Part shown: positions 7,038-52,518 of the stretch, piece by piece | How the letters are laid out: each line of letters opens with the position of its first letter | How positions within the stretch are numbered: position 1 is the first letter of the stretch | NCBI GenBank assembly: GCA_965113315.1 | Contig: OZ220364.1 | DNA length: 64,000 nucleotides | Reading direction: 5' to 3' (one strand) | Origin: Podarcis vaucheri | Taxonomy: Eukaryota | The notes under the pieces: model-generated | What the model was told of the DNA's origin: nothing | Database searches by the model: none | Seen by the model: the letters and a program-made list of their open reading frames with translations, nothing else | Program-made: the position numbers and the translations under genes

Positions 7038-7436
7038 CATAGAATCTTGAGAGTTGGAAGGGACCTCAATGGTCATCTAGTCCAACCTCCTGCAATTCAG
7101 GAATCTCAGCTAAAGCATCCATGACAGATGACAATCCAACCTCTGCTTTAAAATCTCCAAGGAAGGAGAGTCCACCATGTGTTGTGGGAGTCTGTTCCAC
7201 TGCTGAACAGCTCTTAGTTTCAGAAAGTTTTTCCGGATGTTTAGTTGGATTCTCCTTTCTTGCAACTTGAAGCCATTGGTTCAAGTCCTACTCTCCAGAG
7301 CAGGAGAAAACAAGCAGGCTCCCTCTTCTGTCTGACAGCCCTTAAGATATTTGAAGATGGCTATCATATCTCCTCTCACTCTCCTCTTCTCCAGGCTAAA
7401 CATACCTAGCTTCTTCAAGCGCTCCTCATAAGGCTT
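7038..7436 (-). mobile_element. CR1 LINE 3' fragment
   Basis: Minus strand encodes CR1 ORF2 C-terminal-like PYEERLKKLGMFSLEKRRVRGDMIAIFKYLKG and ends in the CR1 tail GGTTGGACTAGATGACC...GGTCCCTTCCAAC...ATTCTATG; possible TSD CTTGTCA. Confidence 0.85.
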
Positions 7437-7777
7437 GTCAGTTGCCCAAGAATCTACAGAGCGGCCTATGCTGAAAAGCAGACTCCTCCAATAAGCAAAT
7501 GTAAGAAGTGCTGGTTTTGTTTTTCAAATACCTTTCAACCAGCACCCATTTTGCCCTACACTGCACATCGTTCCTTAACCGACATGGTTGAACAGGTTGA
7601 TGTGGAGAAAGAAGAGGGAACTCCCTTGGGAAATGGAGGATTCTTAAACTTAGCTGCCACCTTTCAAAAATAAGGTCTGCCACTTCTGCCACGGAACAAG
7701 AGGAAGCGGGGAGAGGAGCATGAACGCTGATGCTGCCATTCTTTTACACCCAGTACTTAAGAGCAGACACGCTACCC

Positions 7778-10661: not shown

Positions 10662-11051
10662 GTATTCTTGACTTTTGTTTATCTGTCTAATGCATGACGC
10701 TTCTGACATTGAAAAGATTCACCTTGGTTGCCAACACAATGGATTTTTTAAAATGTAATTAATATTCCGAACCAAATAATTGTCAATCTAGTTAAAATAC
10801 TGTGTATGTGTGAAGGTGTGAGGTGGGGAGGGGCAAATCAGTCAAATAATCACATGGGTCCTGTATTTCTATCTGGAATGGTTGAGAAGGCATCAACAGC
10901 AAAATAAGGTTTATATTCATGAGCACTATACTGTACTGGATTGTGTGTTTCATAGAAACTTGCTAGTCTGTGCTTCTCTTTTAAAGCCATCCCTGCTGGT
11001 GGCCCTCAATACAATTTGTGGGAATGAATTCAATAGCTTTTAAGCACTATA

Positions 11052-11931
11052 CAGTGGTACCCCGCAAGATGAACGCCTCGCAAAACGAAAGGTTTTTTCG
11101 TTTTCGAGTTGCCTCGCAAGACGAATTTCCCTATGGGCTTGCTTCGCAAAACGAAGCTTGCCCCGGGGACAGCGGGTCTTCTCTTTTGAAGCAAGGGGCG
11201 GCGGGGAGAAGCGATCTTCTCCCCGCAGCCCCAGGTCCGGGGACAGCGGGAAGCGCTTCCCGCTGCCCCCGGACCTCTTTTGAAGCAAGGGGCTGCGGGG
11301 AGATCGCTTCTCCCGGTGCTCCGAAGCCGGGCGGGGGGGCGGGAACACCTTCCCCCACCGCGCCGCTTCGGAACGGTGCTCCGAAGCGGGGCGGGGGGGC
11401 GGGAACACCTTCCCCCACCGCCCGGGTTCGGAACGGTGCTCCGAAGCGGGGCGGGGGGGCGGGAACACCTTCCCCCACCGCCCCGCTTCGGAACGGTGCT
11501 CTGAAGCGGGGCGGGGGGGCGGGAACACCTTCTGAAGGCTGGCGGGGGGCAAAAGTCTTTGTCCCCCCTGCCTGCCTTCCCAGGGGCTTTTAAATCGCCC
11601 CGGACAGCGGATAAGTCCTCCGCTGTCCGGGGCGATTTTAAAATGCCGCCCGCCAGCATTTTAAGATTGCCCGGACAGCGGAGAAGTCCTCCGCTGTCCC
11701 AGGGTTTTTTAAAATGCTGGGGGTGGGAAGAAAAGCCCTTGTCCCCCCCCAGCCTTCAGAAGAGGTCCGGGGACAGACTGTCCCCGGACCTGGTCTGAAG
11801 GCGGTTTCCCTAGGAACGCATTAATTGATTTTCAATGCATTCCTATGGGAAACCGTGCATCGCAAGACGAAAAACTCGCAAGACGAAGAGACTTGCGGAA
11901 CGAATTAATTTCGTCTTGCGAGGCACCACTG
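11052..11931. mobile_element. Tc1/mariner (Tigger/pogo-like) non-autonomous element with an internal minisatellite
   Basis: TA TSD; TIRs CAGTGGTACCCCGCAAGATGAA...TTCGTCTTGCGAGGCACCACTG. Confidence 0.85.
11315..11531. repeat. GC-rich 60-bp tandem repeat (~3.6 copies)
   Basis: Unit GGTGCTCCGAAGCGGGGCGGGGGGGCGGGAACACCTTCCCCCACCGCCCCGCTTCGGAAC repeats with a 60-nt period. Confidence 0.95.
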
Positions 11932-12238
11932 TATGCCTATTTATTTTGCCTGTCCTGAATCTTCCAACACTCAGCTTCATTGGATGTCCACAAGTTCCTG
12001 TTATGAGAGGAGGAGAAAACCTTTTCCTAATCCACTTTCTCCACACTACATAGAAGATAACTTGTCTTCAGCATCAGAGTAACTGCGCTCAGAGAGCTTG
12101 TGTTTATTGACTGACTTTCATACATGCTGGAAGCTTTCTAGTTTAAAAAGATATGACAGTGTGTGTGATCAATAACGCAAAGAATATCAAATGCACAATT
12201 GTGGAACTGTTGGTAACACAGATGTCTCATTTTTCTAG

Positions 12239-23331: not shown

Positions 23332-23960
23332 CCTTAACTCCTGGTACATAGTTATAATTACTTTGGAAGCAAGAGGTGTTTGTAGAATGCAGATCAATAA
23401 TGTTCAGAACGGCTTAGAGGAATGCCTGTTTACTCAGAGGTAAGTCCCAGTGAGTTCAGTGGGGCTTACTCCACATAGGACTGTAGCACGAGTAAAGCTG
23501 TGTTTGTTTCGAATCAGAAACACACCTAGGATGTTTTCAGTTTTCTACCTACCATTCTTTGTAAACTAACATTGCTATAGAGTAAACGTGCAAATGAAAG
23601 GAAGCCTTTTCTGTTAGGTTAATGATTTTGAAGGTTACTTGCAATATGCCAAAAAAAAAAAAAAATTAGAACATGCAAGAATGCAGATAATGTCTTTATT
23701 TTATTTCATTCTTCCAAATGTCATTGTTTAGAAAAGTAGAAGTTTATTGGAACAGCCTCAAGGTTCCATAGTCTTATGGATACTTGAGATTAATCCTCAA
23801 TCTCTGTGGGACCGCCTTCTGAGTAAACATGCAGCATGATTTAATACATGTGTTGCAGTCCCAGCTTCATGTTTTCTTGTGAGATGATAGGAACAAGAAA
23901 TATAAGTGCCTTAACATAAGGATTTTACTTCCATTGCTATACAGTTCCCTCATTATAAAT

Positions 23961-24183
23961 TCAAATGGCAGTGTCCTCCTGAGCAGGCAGGTCAACCGCA
24001 TAGAATCCATTTTTGCATATTTCCTTGTAGATGGTGATATACTTGGAAGCTTTCCTTGTTCGTGGAATCACAAATCTCTCTGTAAAATCACTTTTATTCA
24101 TTTGCTGCTTCTTTTGGGCGCTAAGCACACAGTTAATAAATGTTAGTGCATAGGTGTAACAGTTATGGAGATGTTCTTCATAC
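23961..24183 (-). CDS. MKRN2OS: MKRN2 opposite strand protein, exon 4 (last)
   Basis: (R)YEEHLHNCYTYALTFINCVL...FTERFVIPRTRKASKYITIY...* ; acceptor taatag; total CDS 654 nt = 217 aa. Confidence 0.92.
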
Positions 24184-26535
24184 CTATTAAAGGGAGAACC
24201 AGAAATGAGCATAAGAAACCAATGTGATACATAACTATTAAACATTTTATTAGCTTATGATGATGATGATGGTGCAGGCAGGCCATTATGCCAGAGCAAT
24301 CCTTGACCAATGGAAACATGCACCAGCAGAACATCATTTATGGAAGGATTTTTTAAACGGTGGAACTTGGGGATGTGGCAGAGCAAAGCCACCATTGGGT
24401 AGTGTCTCATGTTTGCTGAGATTAGTCACATTCATTCTGTCTATACAAAGTTACACATGGAAATGATGGAAAGATGCAGATGCTAATATCACCTCCCCCC
24501 CCCCCACCTAGACAAAACTTTCATGTCATATGTGCCATGTGAGTTATATCACACTGCCCTCATATATATTTTTTAAAAAACAACAACTACACAAGTGGAA
24601 ACTTCTGCCTACTATTTAAAGTTCTAACTTTCAGTATGAGGCTTAATTTTCCTTCAGTTATATTTGGTTCACCCATAAATTTATCTTGGATGCAGTTCTT
24701 GCCACCTTTACATTTTTCTCTTCTTGGAAAGCTGAATTTAGCAATAGCATTTAATCTCTTTTTGCATATTGCTGTGTGGCTGAGATTCTACTTGTCCTGT
24801 GATTCTCCAGTGGGTAACAAAACATGCATATATGGCATATGGAGCTGTAAGGATGTGGTTTGCATATGCTAACTGAAGTGTAACTGAGGAACTCTGTAGT
24901 CAGGTTAACTTTGCAATGTGTTCCTCATTATTATTAGAACAGTGTTGATTCATTAAAATTAGTCAAAATACAAAAAAAAAAAAGCCAGGGAATGTCATCC
25001 TTGTATGATTATTATTTTTTGTAAGTTTCTCACTTTGAAAACCTATTTCTCTAAAATTCAAAGTATGTATTGAGCTAATTTTTATGAGATACAAGTTTAG
25101 GTTTCTTAAAAGGATGGAGTGGCTCTGAGTGCTTTTGCAGCCTATTCTTAGGCGACGCACTACTGGGTGGGCTTGGCTTAAAACAAAAACAGATGATGGC
25201 CTCAACCGCAAATTTTATGACTGCCTGTTTAGGATCCAGAACAAAATGGTTTTTTAAAAATAAAAAAATAAGATTTATGTCTTTCTTTCCTTACCGAACT
25301 GCAGTAAAATTACAAATCTCATGGTAGACACATGCTCTCACCACCAGCATTTCTTATGTCACACACTCTTAGCAAAAAGAGTGCTGTAATTTTCAGAGTG
25401 GTGTCTTTGCCTGTAACTTTTCCATAGCTTGGGGATGCCAATGAGTCCCTTCTTGGATTACTTGAAACCTGCACACAGCTCTTGTTCAATTAAAGTAAGA
25501 GAGAATATAGTCTACGTTTACATTAATTTTTTCAAAATTCCAGAACTTGTAAGTGATCATCAGGTCTTTAACATTTGTTGGCCCTTTTTGGTACTTGTAA
25601 TCATCACTGCATATATTATGCTGGGTTGCAGAAAAATAGCTTGACTAAAGCCTTTATTGGAATGACGTTCCTATCGCTAGAAGTACTTGAAAAGCAAACA
25701 TAATACGTTTTGTTTTCCACACTGAAACCATAGGTTGTACTCGAGGGACTATTTGGAATGTACTTCAGGAGAAATCAATCCTAATAATCATTGGATCAGT
25801 GAATATGGACACTGAAATGTTGTTAAGGCTTAGATTAGCCTTCTGGTACTCTCTGGAAATTTTGGACTACAACTCCTATCATTTCTGACAATTGCCTATG
25901 CTGACTGCGGCTGATGGGAGTGGTGGTTTAATTGAGCTGGAGAGCACCTGATTGAGAGAGGCTGACATAAATAATGAAAGCAGCAAAACCTGCCTGTATT
26001 CAATTTTGGTTTTGTTTGTTCGTCTTCCAACAGAAGTGCAATTCTGTACATGCTTACATCCCGTTCCATCTTGATCAGTGTATCAAACGGTCGTATACAT
26101 TCCAATCAATTCCTGTTCCTTATGAAACACATCTGACAACTTTGAACAGAAGTTAAAGCCAGCAACAATATATTTGATTGCACAGATGAGCGTTAACTGA
26201 GAATAGGATGGAGTCCAGTGATAATTTATTCTGCAAAACCATAACACTACAAAGTTACATGGAACTGCTTGCAATGTCTCGAGTCACCTCTCCCTTCTAG
26301 TATTGTTCATACAATACATACTATCAGAATCTCTCAATTAAACCCAAAATATACAGAAATGGTTAAAGAAGGTTAATGAAGAATGAGGCCTCAGAGTAAT
26401 TTTGTCTAAAACCATTTCTCCAAATGACTACATCAGATCCTTCTCTGAGTTACCACCTAGGCAGAGTTCCAAAGCAAAGGATGCCTAGTTTAGCTGCCTT
26501 TGAACATAGTCACATTTGTCTATTGAGCTTCTTAC

Positions 26536-26698
26536 CTGTGTGGAAGCCAGATTTCTGCTGCAGAGAATTGTTCTAGGTATGTATCCCATTGGTTAAGCAG
26601 GCTATACATGTCAGGCTGGACTAGATGAACACTTACACATTGTTCCCATCCATGCTCAGCTATGTTAACTCCAGTTTCGTTGTAATTATATACTAAAC
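26536..26698 (-). CDS. MKRN2OS: MKRN2OS exon 3
   Basis: GLVYNYNETGV...GWEQCVSVHLVQPDMYSLLNQWDTYLEQFSAAEIWLPHR; 163 nt; canonical splice sites. Confidence 0.92.
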
Positions 26699-27364
26699 CT
26701 AAATACACAGCAACAGGACAAATCAGAAATGCAAAATGCAAGGATTAGTTGTGACATGTTGACCAGTAGTATAATTCATTACATTCTGTTAATTGCTGTT
26801 ACTTGCAACATTCCCATTTCCTTTACAGGCTCATCTGAACAGTAGTTCTAAAAATGTTGGTTATATGAACCCTGAGTATGTAGTCCTATGAATGTCAATG
26901 TATTGGCATAATTAATTACCTAAATTGTGTAATTTTGCCACAGCAGAAAGCAAGACAAGTAACATTTTTGGCAGAAGACAAATGGTGGTGTAATGGAAGC
27001 AGCGCCGCATAAAACCAATACAAGTGGAACAAAAAATTATGCCTTCTTACATCCCTAGGCCCAACTGAAAAGAGCTCTAGCTACAGGCAATCACATTTGC
27101 AAACTTTCCCCAGGAAAAATGGTTATGTAGACTTAGGAAAAAGGGAATTGGTGGTAGAAGGGTTGCAGTTCACATACTGTAAGGAGCCTGGAATCTTGGA
27201 AAAGGAAGAGAAATCAAGGGCCAGAATGCCAGGAGGTTGAAGGGGGAGACATTGTAGGCAATAGGCAAAGGATGAGCAACCTGAGAGAAGGAAATGAGTC
27301 CAAAGACATTTATGTTTCACATAGAGAATCTTAATTTACAAAGTGAATTACAAATGTCTCTTAC

Positions 27365-27414
27365 CACTAGTATTGGTTATTCCAACATGGAGATCAGAAC
27401 TTCCATCATACCCT
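27365..27414 (-). CDS. MKRN2OS: MKRN2OS exon 2
   Basis: (R)GYDGSSDLHVGITNTS(G); tttcag/gtaaga boundaries; 50 nt. Confidence 0.92.
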
Positions 27415-27727
27415 CTGAAAGAAGACATTTAATATCTTTTCATGTTAGAAAACAATCCAGTTATTGGGGAGGGAAATGCTATATTTTTGCAATATAGAGA
27501 AATGTCCTGTTCCCTCTCTCTGCCCTGAAAAGACTGACTACAATCTTATCAAATGTAATTACTGTTCCATTTAATTAATTAAACTTCTAAATGAGTAAAA
27601 GGCTGCCTCAATCTGGCAGCAAATTATACATGATATACATACAAAAAAGCACTTATATAAACTGCAGGTGGTTAGCACCATATTAGAAGAGGTATCAACA
27701 ACAATAACAAGTTTATTTCGGGAATTA

Positions 27728-28307
27728 CCGTATTTTTCGCCCTATAGGATGCACTTTTTCCCCTCCAAAAATGAAGGGGAAATCTGGGTGCGTCCTATGG
27801 GGCGAATGCAGGCTTTCGCTGAAGTTTGGAGAGCGAGAGGGGTCTGTGCGCACCGACCCCTCGCTCTCCAGGCTTCAGGAACACATCCGCAGCCTAGGCA
27901 GCCCTACGGGAGGTCCGGAAGGGATGTCTAGGCTGCGGATAGCAGCCTGCTTCCCGGAGCGTCAGGCACCCTGAAAGCAGAGCACCCGGCACTTCGGGAA
28001 CACACCTGCAGCCTACGCAGCCCTGCGGGAGTTCCCCGCAGGGCTCCCCATGCTGCAGATAGCAGCCTGCCGCCCCGCAGGGGGGGCGCCCTGAAGCAGA
28101 GCGCCCCTCACGCCGGGCAGACATGGGCCAGCCCCACAAGTTTGGGGGACAGCAGGGAGGCGCAGCGCCGCCATCCCGCTGTTCCTCAACCTGGTTCGGT
28201 TTCCCCAACCTGCTTTGGGGGGGGGGGATAAAGGAAAAAAATATTTCCTTTATTCCCCCCCCCAAAAAAAAAAAACCTAGGCGCGTCCTATGGGACGAAA
28301 AATACAG
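27728..28307. mobile_element. Tc1/mariner (Tc2-type TIR) non-autonomous element
   Basis: TA TSD; TIRs CCGTATTTTTCGCCCTATAGGA...TCCTATGGGACGAAAAATACAG; GC-rich interior with internal direct repeats. Confidence 0.85.
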
Positions 28308-28429
28308 TATTTTCATCCTGATGCTATTGATACATTACTTAGCTAAAACTCATGCAATTACCGGTAATTGATCAATACTTTTCATCAGGTTGTACCCCAC
28401 GTTCTGCAGATTTTATAATTCCTCTAAAC

Positions 28430-28617
28430 CAAGCATGGGGAACCTTTAAGCTCCCCATTGTTCCTTTGCAGCTATGTGGGTACCTGTCCCATGGCACCAA
28501 ATATGACCACAGATGTGGGATAGTTGGGTGTGGTTTGCAAGGAATGGCCTCATATATTGAAGCAGGACTCTCGTTGGCCTAAATCTGGCCTGAAGCACAA
28601 GAGGTTCCCTACCCTTG
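28430..28617. mobile_element. hAT MITE, first of a tandem pair
   Basis: CAAGCATGGGGAACCT...AGGTTCCCTACCCTTG flanked by CTCTAAAC and CTCTAAAT. Confidence 0.7.
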
Positions 28618-28625
28618 CTCTAAAT

Positions 28626-28761
28626 CAGTGTTTCCCAAACTCTGGTCTCTAGCTGTTTTGGGACTACAGTTCCCATCATCCCAGACCACTGGTCCTGCTA
28701 GCTAGAGATGATGGGAGTTGTAGTTCAAAAACAGCTGGAGACCTAAGACTGAAAAACGCTG
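28626..28761. mobile_element. Palindromic hAT MITE, second of a tandem pair
   Basis: CAGTGTTTCCC...GAAAAACGCTG ends; internal inverted repeat GGACTACAGTTCCCATCATC/GATGATGGGAGTTGTAGT; flanked by CTCTAAAT and CTCTAAAC. Confidence 0.8.
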
Positions 28762-29753
28762 CTCTAAACTGATCGTGGGATTTGTAACTCTATAAAGGTG
28801 GTGTCTTGTTTGTTTGTTTGTTTGTTTTCATTTCTATACCTCTTTATAAGAAAAAAACTCAAAGCTGTTTACAGTTGATCACTAAATTAGACCTCCTGAC
28901 CTGTCAATTTGGTTTCAAAACAAATTTTGACTCACTTTAGTAAATTATGCAGAATTTACTCATTTCTACACCAGAGCTTAGAATAAGTCCACATGGTTTG
29001 TCTGCGGAAGGTGCCATATTTATTTCATTTTTAAAGTTTTACAAACCATTTAATCCAAGAACTCTCTAAGCAGTGTACATAATAAAATTGTACCGAAATC
29101 CACTATGAAGAAACATACACGAAATAATAATATATTAAGACACAGATGAAAACCATAGAACTTCTAAAACAAATATAGGTAACTAAATCATAGGTCTGGG
29201 TAGGCTTGCTAAAATAAAAACTTTTTCAGTGCATGTCTGAAATATAGTGAGGGTGCTGCCAAACTAAATGATCAACTCCTCGCAAAGGCAGAGCAGACAT
29301 TATATGGCACTTGTAAAAGTGCAAGTTCCCCAGATCAAAGCAGTCAAATTGGCACATGTAGGGCAAGGCAATCCCTTATGTAAACTGGTCCCAAGCTGCT
29401 AAGGCCTTGAATGGCAGAACCTTGAATGTGGCCCAGTGACAAACTGACAACCAATACAGATGTTTGAGCAATGGTACCATCATGCTGGCAAAATCTCACT
29501 CCTATCAGTCATCATGCTGCAGCATTCTGCACTGCACACTGCTCACTCCTTGGCACCTCTAATCCTGCTGCCACATTGCAAGGATGAGAGAGAATTTAGC
29601 CCCAGATCTTGGGAAAACATTGCTAGCCATAAGTGGACTGCGGCAGATGGACTGATCTAATCCATCGTAAGGTAGCTTTCATATGTCTTCTTTCTGAGCA
29701 CACAAGCAAAATGAACATAAATACTAATAGCATTGTTGAGCAGAAAATCCTAC

Positions 29754-29971
29754 CTCAGAAAGGTTCCTGTAGTAGGTTTAAGTAAAAAAGAACATCTTTC
29801 TCTGTGCCCATTAACAAATGGGCTGGGGATAGTGACAGGGGCTTCTTCCAGTTTCCTGTAGAACAGGCTCTGCCCACACAGGGGACACTGCTTGGGCACA
29901 AAGGAACCAAAGATGTCTCTCTTACAGTGGCTGATTTTGATTAAGCCTCTCTCCGAGTCCAAAGGCTGCAT
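29754..29971 (-). CDS. MKRN2OS: MKRN2OS coding exon 1
   Basis: MQPLDSERGLIKISHC...CPLCGQ...RKLEEAPVTIPSPFVNGHRERCSFLLKPTTGTFL(R); donor AG|GTAGG; 218 nt; an upstream in-frame ATG exists at 30064. Confidence 0.9.
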
Positions 29972-30488
29972 GATTTCTGCCGCCTCCTTGTGCAAATGCA
30001 GCTGGGCTTCTACCTGGCACAGGCTTATGGGTGAAAGGCAGAGCTTAACTACTGAAATGGACATGGGAAAGTGGGTGGGATTTATTAGCTGTGCAGGTGA
30101 GACTGACAGATCAGAGAGCCAATTACTCCTCTAAGAGAAGGAAGCAGAGAAGGGGGCAGGGAGGGAGGGTTTGCAGGTGGACATTCCCTTAAAGAGCCAG
30201 TATTTGTTTTTTCACATCATGAGGAGGTTATTCTGCTGTAGATTCACACAGTATGGTAGCTGTAATTTGTCCACTCATGTGGTCAATATTGGCTCAGTTC
30301 CTGCTAGTGGCTAGCCTTCTGTTTCTCTGCATATAAAACCGAAACCCCAAAGCTATGTTAACTGATGTTAAACAGAAAGGCCCCTGTATTTTCTCTTTTG
30401 CACAGAAAGAAAATTGTGACTTGGAAGTTTGGGGCTTGCACCTGCTTCTCCGCTAGCATAGCTGTCAGGCAAACCTAGCAGCATAATA

Positions 30489-31429: not shown

Positions 31430-32340
31430 GTTTGTGACGCTTCCGGCCCTCCTTGCTAGTTAGGGCGATGTGCAGCTCCCAAACGATTCGGCGCCACCGT
31501 AGATTGAGAACGACTGTCTTGTTCAGAGGCGCCGCTAGAGGGCGCGCCGCCTCGCTCTCGCGTTGGCGCTTCAGGCGCGCGACCGCTCTAGCCCCACAGG
31601 CTGGCAAGGAGCTACGGCAAGTCTCCATGGCCGCCGCCGCCGACCTCCATTTCCGCCACAGCCAAAAGCATCCGGCCTCTAATTACGGCCGCGCGTGCCT
31701 CCCCTAATGCCTTCCGGCCGGAAACCAGTTCCTGCAAGAAGAGGCCGGGTAGCTTTGGCAGGGCTCCCAAACAGCTCCTCCTCCCTTCGCCCGCCGCCTT
31801 AAGCTTCTCAGGGCTCAGCGGAACCAAAATGCGAGGAGCTGCGCCGGGAGGGGACGCCGAAGCGGGAGCGGAGCCGGAGGAGACATGAGCAGCACTAAGG
31901 ACGTGACCTGCAGGTCAGAGCCACCGAGCACTGCGACCTCTCCCCTCCCCCACCTACCGCCCTACGGCGCGCGGGCACGCCCCGCCCCTCGCCGGGGAGG
32001 GGTCGAGAGGCGGCCGGGCTCCCGCCCTCCTCCCGCCCGTTAAACTCCCGAGAGCCCCCTCCCCCACCCAACGGAAGGGGAAGGAGAGGCGGGCGCCGCT
32101 GCTTCGGCTTCCTACCTTTGTTCCATTTCCCTGGTGACAGGCGGACACACCCCGCTCCCGCCTGCAGCCCCGTTGGTCCCAAAGCCCTGCAAGGAGACCC
32201 TCGTGGGCCTAGAAGCCACTAGGCGTATAGGAGGCCCTTTGGGATCTGGCCTCCTTGGGGGGAGAGGACGAGGCAACCTCTGTGATCCTGGCCCCCCATC
32301 CCTACCTAGCTCGCCTCCGCACGCGCCTGTGTGTGTCTCC
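31430..32340. promoter_or_regulatory. CpG island / MKRN2 promoter, potentially bidirectional with MKRN2OS
   Basis: High GC and CpG content around MKRN2 exon 1; CTCF-like CCGCTAGAGGGCGC at 31532-31545; palindromic paired ETS sites TTCCGGCCGGAA at 31712-31723. Confidence 0.8.
31885..31913 (+). CDS. MKRN2: Makorin-2 E3 ubiquitin ligase, exon 1
   Basis: MSSTKDVTC(R); donor AG|GTCAGA; phase matches exon 2. Confidence 0.9.
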
Positions 32341-50530: not shown

Positions 50531-51969
50531 CTAAAGTAAAGAGGGGAAAGGGGGGGGGAGAGGAAATTATAACGGCCTGTCCAATTTCTGTGCAAGACTA
50601 TCTTAATTACAGTACTGACAACTTCCTAGGTCTAGACAAGGCTACAAGTGCAAATTTTGTGAAAGCTCTTGCCAGCCCCACCCACTTCCCTGTGACCATT
50701 TCCTGTTTATAAAATAGAGAGCAGACAGGACAGCGTTTATTTTCTGCCTTGTGAAAAGCGTGAGTGGCTCACATTACACACCCAAAGCACAAACCTATGT
50801 GCAGGGATACCCACAGGTTGCTGGCAATAGCTTGGGAGTGACAACGCTACAACACAAATACCCAGTTTTAAAATACATTCTTAAAAAAATCAAATTATAG
50901 TATCTCAGCATTACTGAAAAACAGTAAAGAAAAGTGAACATGGTTATCTGGAAAACTGTTTCATTATCTCCCACTAATGAAACATTTTGGTCTTATCAGA
51001 AGCAGGAAATACCAAGAAACATAAAATTGAGAATTTTAGTGTCTCTCAGGAAACAGATAAACAGAGATATAAATCTGTCTTTCTTTCTATAATTTATTTA
51101 TGTATGTGTGTGAGAACGATTAAACATAATATGCCTCTCTCCCCGCCACCCTCTCTCTCATAAATGCGGATATATACATAAGAGAAGGGTAAAATTTGTA
51201 TCTGTCTTGTTGTTTATGTATTTTATTACCCTTCTCTTGTATATATTAAATCATATATAATGTTATATAGACACAGCTGTATAATGTGTCCATCTTGCCC
51301 CAAGTGGAGGAGAGAAAGCTGCAGAAACGGGTTAGGAAGCTGCCAGCCTCTAGCTCCCCATGGAGACCTCTCTCCCCACTCCCCACCTGAGGGACGTCTG
51401 AAGAATCAAGAGGAACGGAGAAGAAAAGGAGGCAGCCTCTGCAATGACAGTTGTTTGTCCTTCCTCTTTCATCATATAATTTCTATCGACACTTATTTTA
51501 AAAAAATAATTTTATGTAAACTACTTTGTGAAGTCCATCCGATAAGCAGTACATATATTCAATAAATACATACCTACAGGTTTTTGTTTTTAATTATTAA
51601 AGATTTTCCTCGTTTACAAAAGCACATGCTTTGTATTTTTCTTCAGGTTGTGTTTTCTACAAGATCAGTTACTTTTGTCGTGAAACATTGGTGTTATATG
51701 CAGTATAGGGTTGGGAAGAAAAGAAGGGGGGCGGGAGAAAGGGTTGGGGTGGTAAAGCCCATATTCTTTTACTTGGTGTATGTGTAGGGTTTTTGTGTCA
51801 GTGTCACTTGAGGAGGTTCTCTTTCTATTCCTTTGCTATGTTTCCTTGATGGTGGGAGAGGTTGGGGTGGCCTGGGGTGTGGTTGATCACCTTTGGTTGG
51901 CTGCAGTGGGATCTGTTTCTGTGTGTGAGGAGGGTGTTGTTGGGTTAAGTTAATACATACCTATAGTTA

Positions 51970-52518
51970 CGAAATTAAAAGACGCCTGCTCCTTGGGAGA
52001 AAGGCGATGGCAAACCTAGACAACATCTTAAAAAGCAGAGACATCACCTTGCCAACAAAGGTCCGTATAGTTAAAGCTATGGTTTTCCCAGTAGTGATGT
52101 ATGGAAGTGAGAGCTGGACCATAAAGAAGGCTGATCGCCGAAGAATTGATGCTTTTGAATTAGGGTGCTGGAGGAGACTCTTGAGAGTCCCATGGACTGC
52201 AAGAAGATCAAACCTCTCCATTCTGAAGGAAATCAGCCCTGAGTGCTCACTGGAAGGACAGATCGTGAAGCTGCTCCAATACTTTGGCCACCTCATGAGA
52301 AGAGAGGACTCCCTGGAAAAGACCCTGATGTTGGGAAAGATGGAGGGCACAAGGAGAAGGGGACGACAGAGAATGAGATGGTTGGATGGTGTTCTTGAAG
52401 CTACTAGCATGAGTTTGATCAAACTGCGGGAGGCAGTGGAGGACAGAAGTGCCTGGCGTGCTCTGGTCCATGGGGTCACGAAGAGTCGGACACGACTAAA
52501 CGACTAAACAACAACAAC
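51970..52518 (+). mobile_element. RTE-BovB LINE, 5'-truncated 3' fragment
   Basis: ORF 52007-52507 MANLDNILKSRDITLPTKVRIVKAMVFPVVMYGSESWTIKK... is the BovB RT C-terminus; (CAA)n tail; TSD ATAGTTA at 51963-51969 and 52519-52525. Confidence 0.95.

Follow-up and report, generated by a model that had tools for sequence, protein, structure and literature searches.

The name of the human protein MKRN2OS hints at a by-product of antisense transcription, and its locus in the lizard Podarcis vaucheri raises the question of whether the gene encodes an enzyme. The P. vaucheri gene lies on the minus strand between positions 23961 and 29971 of a 64,000-nucleotide stretch of contig OZ220364.1 (assembly GCA_965113315.1), hereafter called the window. 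An earlier note on this DNA had proposed that the protein is a permuted papain-fold hydrolase or acyltransferase with a His-Cys dyad and an N-terminal zinc ribbon. We find a normal MKRN2OS (DUF4796) gene here, intact throughout, and the protein it encodes is very probably a catalytically competent, soluble, circularly permuted papain-fold (NlpC/P60-type) cysteine enzyme, judging from a predicted fold and from residue conservation. The permuted papain-like assignment has already been published as a prediction, in 2023 (PMC10318531).

The coding sequence comprises four minus-strand exons and 217 codons, and it was the sole open combination with GT-AG introns when boundary offsets of +/-3 nt were tested. 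Exon 1 (29754..29971) encodes Met1 to Arg73, with the putative zinc module, including H15-C16...C29-P-L-C32, and the first core strand. The strand bearing the catalytic His is encoded by exon 2 (27365..27414, 50 nt), and exon 3 (26536..26698, 163 nt) supplies the third-residue strand, the helix at residues 121-135 and the conserved residues W107, W127 and W140. Exon 4 (23961..24183, through the stop) carries Tyr145, Asn151-Cys152, the catalytic helix and a long basic C-terminal helix. His82, the predicted general base, is the CAT codon at 27387..27389, and Cys152, the predicted nucleophile, the TGT codon at 24159..24161. Asn94, twelve residues after the His (His+12), is the predicted third triad residue and falls at 26685..26687 on the exon map; Tyr145 (Cys-7), at 24180..24182, is the predicted oxyanion residue, equivalent to Tyr101 of PPPDE1 (PMC3142127). 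The His motif straddles the exon 2/3 junction, and the Tyr-x5-Asn-Cys-x2-Tyr motif begins at the exon 3/4 junction. The splice-offset test and a codon check reproduced the 217-residue reconstruction, the His and Cys codons and the three motifs on which the earlier note had relied. When all six reading frames of the window were scanned, Y-x5-NC-[YF] turned up 2 times against 0.47 in shuffled sequence, HC-x11-15-CxxC 4 times against 0.23, and LH[VI]G[IV] once against 0.17. Such short motifs alone are weak evidence, and they rise above chance here because of the gene model, the Pfam matches and the invariance in homologues described below.

The window protein is a member of the MKRN2OS/DUF4796 family (PF22795 plus PF16044; human H3BPM6), with Pfam scores above cut-off. 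None of 15 cluster members compared was identical to it. MKRN2OS isoform X2 of Podarcis raffonei (P0050) agrees at 212 of 217 positions and a P. muralis record at 213 of 217, and P0050, at 98% identity, was used as a stand-in for the window protein in whole-protein searches and folds. P0050 matched PF16044 at an E-value (E) of 4.5e-62 (208.7 bits, gathering cut-off 28) and PF22795 at 1e-10 (41.6 bits, gathering cut-off 27). Three window exons, scanned singly, each match DUF4796 above cut-off, and the scan of exon 1 gave PF22795 (E 1.7e-12) together with the start of PF16044. A homologue search returned 687 homologous clusters at E <= 0.001, with distant homologues named from amphioxus, tunicates, a sea star, molluscs, a leech (annelid), a tardigrade, insects and amphipods. 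Syssomonas multiformis, a unicellular holozoan and non-animal opisthokont, also has a DUF4796 homologue (P0271, EukProt), in which every catalytic and zinc residue is kept. This is a single transcript for which contamination is possible; its identity to its eight best matches is at most 38%, and it is therefore compatible with a genuine gene. DUF4796 is listed as an animal family in PMC10318531, in contrast to this one sequence. A search seeded with Syssomonas and distant members (6 proteins) did not find a further named non-animal homologue. Vertebrate-derived patterns run against bacterial and archaeal genomes gave 17 matches and 0 relatives, the approach being insensitive and no proof of absence. 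Separately, the invertebrate homologues P0207, P0216, P0227, P0254, P0261 and P0236 have long inserts between the zinc module and the catalytic domain, or long C-terminal tails that match nothing in Pfam. A kinase fusion in the sturgeon record P0023 was set aside as a likely gene-model merge with the adjoining kinase gene.

Conservation was counted in two sets of homologues aligned to P0050. Set 1, the vertebrates, consisted of 111 of the 120 proteins listed; dropped from it were the longer isoform of the reference, a record with an internal duplication, two partial isoforms, two nameless records and three great apes. Set 2 consisted of 63 proteins among the 150 representatives listed of the 687 clusters, 21-40% identical to P0050, that spanned nearly the whole profile and scored at most 214 bits; this choice favours motif-keeping proteins and places divergent paralogues, such as worm GVD-1, outside the sample. 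His82 and Cys152 were each present in 111/111 and 63/63 proteins, and thus in 174/174 at identities as low as 21%. Most other His and Cys residues vary: among the 63 distant homologues, H56 was kept in 7, H105 in 3, H114 in 0, H143 in 1, H148 in 2, C162 in 3 and C200 in 2, with C60 (25), C110 (45) and H150 (20) intermediate. The invariance of the two residues across orthologues, which the earlier note had proposed as a check, therefore holds. Position 94 is Asn, His or Ser in all 111 vertebrates and Glu, Asp, Ser, Asn or His in 59 of the 63 distant homologues, making it polar in 170/174. A Cys-His-Ser triad is considered possible for DUF4796 in PMC10318531, but Ser occupies His+12 in only 14 of the 174 homologues counted here. 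Tyr145 is kept in 102/111 vertebrates and 61/63 distant homologues (163/174), with Phe in the other 11. Both members of the proposed dyad are thus invariant, but the polar residue at His+12 makes a triad with an oxyanion Tyr likelier than a bare dyad.

An AlphaFold2 model of P0050, built from a 79-sequence alignment, had a predicted local distance difference test score (pLDDT) of 94.8 and a predicted template-modelling score of 0.88. In the model, strand 81-86 holds His82, strand 92-96 holds Asn94, and helix 152-166 starts with Cys152, so that the His precedes the Cys in sequence and sits on a core strand, with the Cys at the N-terminus of a core helix. Foldseek placed PPPDE1 (3ebq) first, with a probability of 1.00 and E 7e-3, and DeSI (2wp7) second. 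With an exhaustive structural aligner, 8 chains in a representative set of 48,161 had Z >= 5. They were DeSI-1 (2wp7) at Z 8.3, with a root-mean-square deviation (rmsd) of 3.1 over 104 aligned residues (model residues 59-180), TseH (7.0), YiiX (2if6; 6.7), BcPPNE (3kw0; 6.2), a Euglena respiratory supercomplex (complex-I) subunit (PDB 8iuf chain E7; 5.8), PLAAT4 (7zot; 5.7, rmsd 4.0 over 91 aligned residues), CLN5 (6r99; 5.1) and Aichivirus 2A (5.0). PPPDE1 (3ebq), compared separately, scored Z 8.1. PLAAT4, TseH and Aichivirus 2A are taken to be permuted papain-like, in part from the 2023 review. YiiX, BcPPNE, PPPDE1 and CLN5 have been described as such (PMC3142127, PMC9012467). The individual Z values are middling, and the strength of the comparison lies in the occupation of the top ranks by one superfamily. 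The active site of PPPDE1 consists of His38, Tyr101 and Cys108, with Phe at the usual third position (PMC3142127), and the spacings of His82, Tyr145 and Cys152 (70 and 7 residues) are those of PPPDE1. In BcYkfC, His303 lies twelve residues after His291 (PMC3142127), the register of Asn94 to His82. The papain fold that the earlier note had inferred from motifs is thereby upheld in comparison with DESI and PLAAT structures, similarity to the permuted NlpC/P60 fold being accompanied by a His and a Cys that do not vary. Sequence searches of the PDB (profiles A1 and A3; P0258) returned chance matches only (best E 0.51-1.2) and so no solved relative, DeSI and PLAAT being beyond the reach of HMMER, and LRAT itself and TMEM222 were absent from the fold-search matches listed, which rules out nothing.

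The enzyme is predicted to be soluble. No transmembrane segment was found in P0050 (maximum of 0.7 in a 19-residue Kyte-Doolittle window), and a hydropathy of at least 1.6 anywhere was reached in 4/174 homologues. The C-terminal helix (185-202) is basic and amphipathic, with a net charge of +5. The conserved residues F71, L72, Y75, W127, L131 and W140 sit in segments equivalent to the S1-pocket loops of permuted relatives, where a hydrophobic pocket would be expected.

Kinship within the superfamily differs from the DESI/LRAT-like placement of the earlier note. Seventy-nine family members were scanned with Pfam models of neighbouring families at E <= 0.1. RTE1/TMEM222 (PF05608, DUF778) was matched by 26/79 (best E 1.5e-5), the best of the scores listed, 23.3 bits, lying below the curated cut-off of 29.4; in four proteins the matched stretch opens exactly at the catalytic His. 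Peptidase_C97 (PPPDE/DeSI, PF05903) was matched by 2/79 (E 0.05-0.07, best 13.8 bits against a cut-off of 29.2), and LRAT (PF04970) by 0/79. A Myco_haema match (E 8e-4, below cut-off, 3/79 members) was discarded as noise. By sequence, RTE1/TMEM222 is thus the nearest family, ahead of DeSI and LRAT. It was also the top look-alike in the Atlas (0.79), which is a lead only. The accession Q8BVA2 is mouse Tmem222. H3BPM6 has been paired with Q8BVA2 at a TM-score of 0.47 (PMC9992864). DUF778 proteins have three C-terminal transmembrane helices (PMC10318531), whereas MKRN2OS has none. MKRN2OS belongs to none of the DeSI, LRAT and TMEM222 families.

Comparison with characterized systems places the protein beside these families in a similar way. 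DeSI-1 and DeSI-2 (PPPDE, MEROPS C97; 2wp7, 3ebq) share with it the best-matching fold, the His-before-Cys order and the spacings of 70 and 7. They differ from it in that identity is 9-12%, the Pfam score is below cut-off, the third position of MKRN2OS is polar rather than Phe, and its N-terminus is longer by about 55 residues, the H/C-C-C-C site lying beyond the stretch that aligns. The LRAT/PLAAT enzymes (PF04970; 7zot) share the permuted core, the Asn-Cys motif and the polar third residue, but MKRN2OS lacks both the Pfam match and a hydrophobic anchor and has the extra zinc module. CLN5 shares the permuted core with His-Tyr-Cys and is an in vitro S-depalmitoylase (PMC9012467), the activity on which our guess at the substrate is modelled; CLN5 is larger and glycosylated, whereas MKRN2OS has no hydrophobic signal or anchor segment. 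By analogy, MKRN2OS may share the chemistry of DeSI, CLN5 and PLAAT while forming its own family inside the permuted papain-like superfamily.

The N-terminal module is one of the features that set the protein apart from DeSI. The putative zinc site spans 29876..29929 on the minus strand and is proposed from conservation and from weak rubredoxin/zinc-ribbon fold matches; its ligand codons are His15 (29929-29927), Cys16 (29926-29924), Cys29 (29887-29885) and Cys32 (29878-29876). Each of the four residues was present in 111/111 vertebrates, and in the distant set they were kept in 60, 61, 63 and 62 of 63, respectively. The spacing of the first ligand pair is 0, 1 or 2 residues among homologues (H-C, H-x-C or H-x-x-C), and in the models this pair makes up a knuckle of shortened form, H-x(0-2)-C, where a hairpin (10-15/18-22) turns; the hairpin was retained when exon 1 was folded alone (pLDDT 82.7). 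Cys replaces His15 in P0225 (C-x-C), and one homologue is truncated N-terminally. In P0248, H15, C16 and C32 are lost together and His82, Tyr145 and Cys152 are kept, which suggests a structural role for the metal site, and one that at least one lineage can do without. From this pattern of conservation and loss we infer a four-ligand structural metal site, and one zinc ion is quite probably bound at His15, Cys16, Cys29 and Cys32. The module lies about 90-210 residues ahead of the catalytic His in five representatives, including blowfly and amphipod, versus 67 here, and therefore behaves as a separable unit. Pfam holds a separate 29-position model spanning exactly the Cys/His module, and its curators may thus have annotated metal binding already. 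The word ribbon is plausible. The top Foldseek rows for the module were rubrerythrin, Cbf5-Nop10, MCM, PolD, LapB and Sir2, all at E >= 0.65, entries that presumably carry metal ribbons of the rubredoxin or zinc-ribbon kind. RUBY_RBDX matched 6/79 members, all at E >= 0.017. An Atlas search with residues 6-50 gave no usable match, and a prediction of a homodimer with zinc, in which the alignment was not used, scored 0.00 and is evidence neither way. Of the N-terminal zinc ribbon that had been claimed, the ligands are thus well conserved, but the structure search gives the fold little backing.

Several observations weigh against the enzyme reading or parts of it. No Foldseek match to the model reached E <= 0.001, and the aligner itself warns that common arrangements can yield Z values of about 8 at 9% identity. 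For the zinc module by itself, structure searches gave nothing significant (Foldseek E 0.65 and Z 2.1 at best). Position 94 is Ala in 4/63 distant homologues. Tyr145 is replaced by Phe in 9/9 teleosts of set 1 and in 2/63 distant homologues, and this Tyr has been described as apparently essential across the superfamily (PMC3142127). With no transmembrane segment, membrane access to a lipid substrate is unexplained, and worms with a putative null allele of the orthologue W10D9.3 showed no visible phenotype (PMC10320718). The nine teleosts (P0140, P0142, P0144 and P0146-P0151) also have a two-residue insert before position 145 and Thr after the catalytic His, and Tyr145 is retained in gar, bowfin, sturgeon and bichir. 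P0166 and P0196 have Phe at the Tyr145 position and Cys-Cys in place of Asn-Cys.

If the permuted cysteine enzyme acts as its superfamily does, His82, oriented by Asn94, would deprotonate Cys152, which would attack a carbonyl, with Tyr145 stabilizing the oxyanion intermediate. The resulting acyl-enzyme thioester would then be released to water or to an acceptor. His15, Cys16, Cys29 and Cys32 would hold one structural zinc ion in a small ribbon-like module. As to the substrate, our best guess by analogy, a tentative one that falls somewhat short of even odds, is a fatty-acyl group in thioester, ester or amide linkage, as in protein S-deacylation at the Golgi or other membranes. In permuted members the beta1-beta2 and alphaD-alphaF loops build a hydrophobic S1 pocket (PMC3142127), DeSI-1, DeSI-2 and CLN5 have S-depalmitoylase activity on artificial substrates, namely palmitoyl thioester probes (PMC9012467), and a report places human MKRN2OS at the Golgi (PMC10318531 supplement, citing another source). 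An acyl substrate is ranked first because of the aromatic residues in the S1 segments, these depalmitoylation activities and the Golgi report; a ubiquitin-like isopeptidase is ranked second, another peptidase third and no catalysis last.

A ubiquitin-, SUMO- or NEDD8-type isopeptidase like DeSI-1 and DeSI-2, with the zinc module as a substrate-binding element, is the less likely but most substantial competitor. In its favour, no structures match better than DeSI-1 and PPPDE1, the His-Tyr-Cys spacing is identical, MKRN2OS is soluble by hydropathy, and the function of DESI1 in cells requires Cys108 (PMC11656513). Against this stand the rarity of Peptidase_C97 matches (about 13.5 bits in the two members concerned, versus 29.2), the polar third position where PPPDE1 has Phe, and the description of the isopeptidase activity of PPPDE1/2 as weak beside their thioesterase activity (PMC9012467). 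The E3 ligase label applied to MKROS in PMC10318531 (section 'Human enzymes' and Table S1) gives the isopeptidase no support, since the paper cited for it is titled on the neighbour MKRN2; in the supplement of the same work the function of DUF4796 is given as unknown, and the label looks like a misattribution from MKRN2.

A phospholipase/acyltransferase of the LRAT/PLAAT type, taking the acyl chain of a phospholipid and passing it to an acceptor, seems improbable, and such transfer would make up somewhat more than a third of the acyl guess. The match to PLAAT4, the polar residue at His+12, as in the LRAT type with its CHH triad (PMC10318531), and the basic amphipathic C-terminal helix, which could dock on membranes, would suit it; the structural score is nevertheless below that of DeSI and Pfam LRAT found no member. 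A C-terminal hydrophobic membrane anchor is a trait of LRAT/PLAAT proteins, and none is present here. Also improbable is conventional peptidase or amidase activity directed at a particular protein, with a substrate neither lipid nor ubiquitin-like. The superfamily spans many chemistries, TseH, YiiX and BcPPNE occupy ranks 2-4 of the fold search, and the teleost loop change, from Tyr to Phe with two residues inserted, suggests an adjustable specificity, but positive evidence for a peptide substrate was not found. That MKRN2OS is a pseudo-enzyme, a metal-binding scaffold or an antisense-transcription by-product of the MKRN2 promoter is very improbable. The literature searched yielded no activity data, the worm null is silent, the gene is arranged head-to-head with MKRN2, and the Tyr is lost in teleosts. 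The frame is nevertheless intact across four exons that are clear of the MKRN2 coding exons, and the homologous clusters extend from arthropods to Syssomonas with His82 and Cys152 invariant. That MKRN2OS is a real, conserved gene and no antisense by-product is therefore borne out.

The preferred reading, a permuted papain-fold cysteine enzyme, agrees with Ozhelvaci & Steczkiewicz, who entered DUF4796/MKRN2OS in cluster II of the papain-like families as new, noted that its catalytic residues are conserved, marked H3BPM6 as Active = 1, and grouped it in an NlpC/P60-like cluster with DESI1/2, TMEM222, LRAT and PLAAT (PMC10318531). The enzyme proposal of the earlier note is thus supported in fold and residues but is not new, and it will not surprise a specialist because the prediction is already in print. 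The two mentions of zinc in the main text of PMC10318531 concern other families, and its supplement paragraph on DUF4796 gives no metal site. GVD-1, a divergent DUF4796 protein, is required for worm larval development (PMC10320718). In literature titles and the openings of abstracts, a scope outside which fall preprint supplements and chemoproteomic tables, no study of MKRN2OS/DUF4796/C3orf83 biochemistry was found. Additions that we did not find in the literature searched are the H/C-C-C-C site, the polar third residue, RTE1/TMEM222 as the nearest sequence family, the change of Tyr145 to Phe in teleosts and the Syssomonas homologue. The site, the third residue, the teleost change and the homologue are modest additions. 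The analysis offers a map for mutagenesis (C152, H82, N94, Y145 and the zinc ligands H15, C16, C29 and C32), with Phe145 of teleosts as a natural variant. Should a substrate be found, a conserved orphan enzyme would gain a function, which could inform TMEM222 (neurodevelopmental disorder) and RTE1 (ethylene signalling). A bolder and doubtful extension is that the family forms its own branch of soluble, zinc-ribbon-capped cysteine deacylases, older than animals, that strip fatty-acyl groups such as S-palmitate from proteins at the cytosolic face of the Golgi. If true, this branch would be a cysteine-based counterpart of the serine depalmitoylases, and teleosts would have retuned its oxyanion loop.

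The surroundings of the gene are conventional. Plus-strand exons with TSEN2 features run from near 10.5 kb and reach at least 19.6 kb (tRNA_int_endo, E 2.9e-7), MKRN2 is on the plus strand with its ATG at 31885 and CCCH fingers in later exons, and RAF1 kinase exons are on the minus strand from about 50.4 to 60.2 kb. The names TSEN2, MKRN2 and RAF1 are our assignments from Pfam domains and sequence motifs, and the resulting order in the window, TSEN2-MKRN2OS-MKRN2-RAF1, presumably matches that in human. MKRN2OS and MKRN2 are arranged head-to-head with their ATGs about 1.9 kb apart; their coding exons do not overlap, and the MKRN2OS frame is therefore no shadow of MKRN2. A CpG island at the MKRN2 start (31501..32000, GC 0.67, CpG observed/expected 0.93) is probably the shared promoter of the head-to-head pair. 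On the minus strand an in-frame ATG at 30064 would add 31 codons (29972..30064) to give a 248-residue form, which is annotated in Podarcis, Lacerta and Zootoca; the ATG at 29971 lines up with the start of other squamate MKRN2OS proteins. The lizard gene is an ordinary family copy, with this possible N-terminal extension as its sole peculiarity. Candidate polyadenylation signals 3' of the stop (23705..23845, minus strand) are ATTAAA at 23845 and AATAAA at 23748 and 23705, by motif match only. GC-rich, internally repetitive stretches at about 27700-28330 (MKRN2OS intron 1) and 11000-11800 (a TSEN2 intron) are probably interspersed or tandem repeats, and CpG enrichment was seen at 11001-12000 in the TSEN2 intron region. 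Open stretches at 51929-52504 (plus strand; no Pfam match) and about 7284-7523 (minus strand) resemble fragments of the C-termini of long interspersed nuclear element (LINE) reverse transcriptases.

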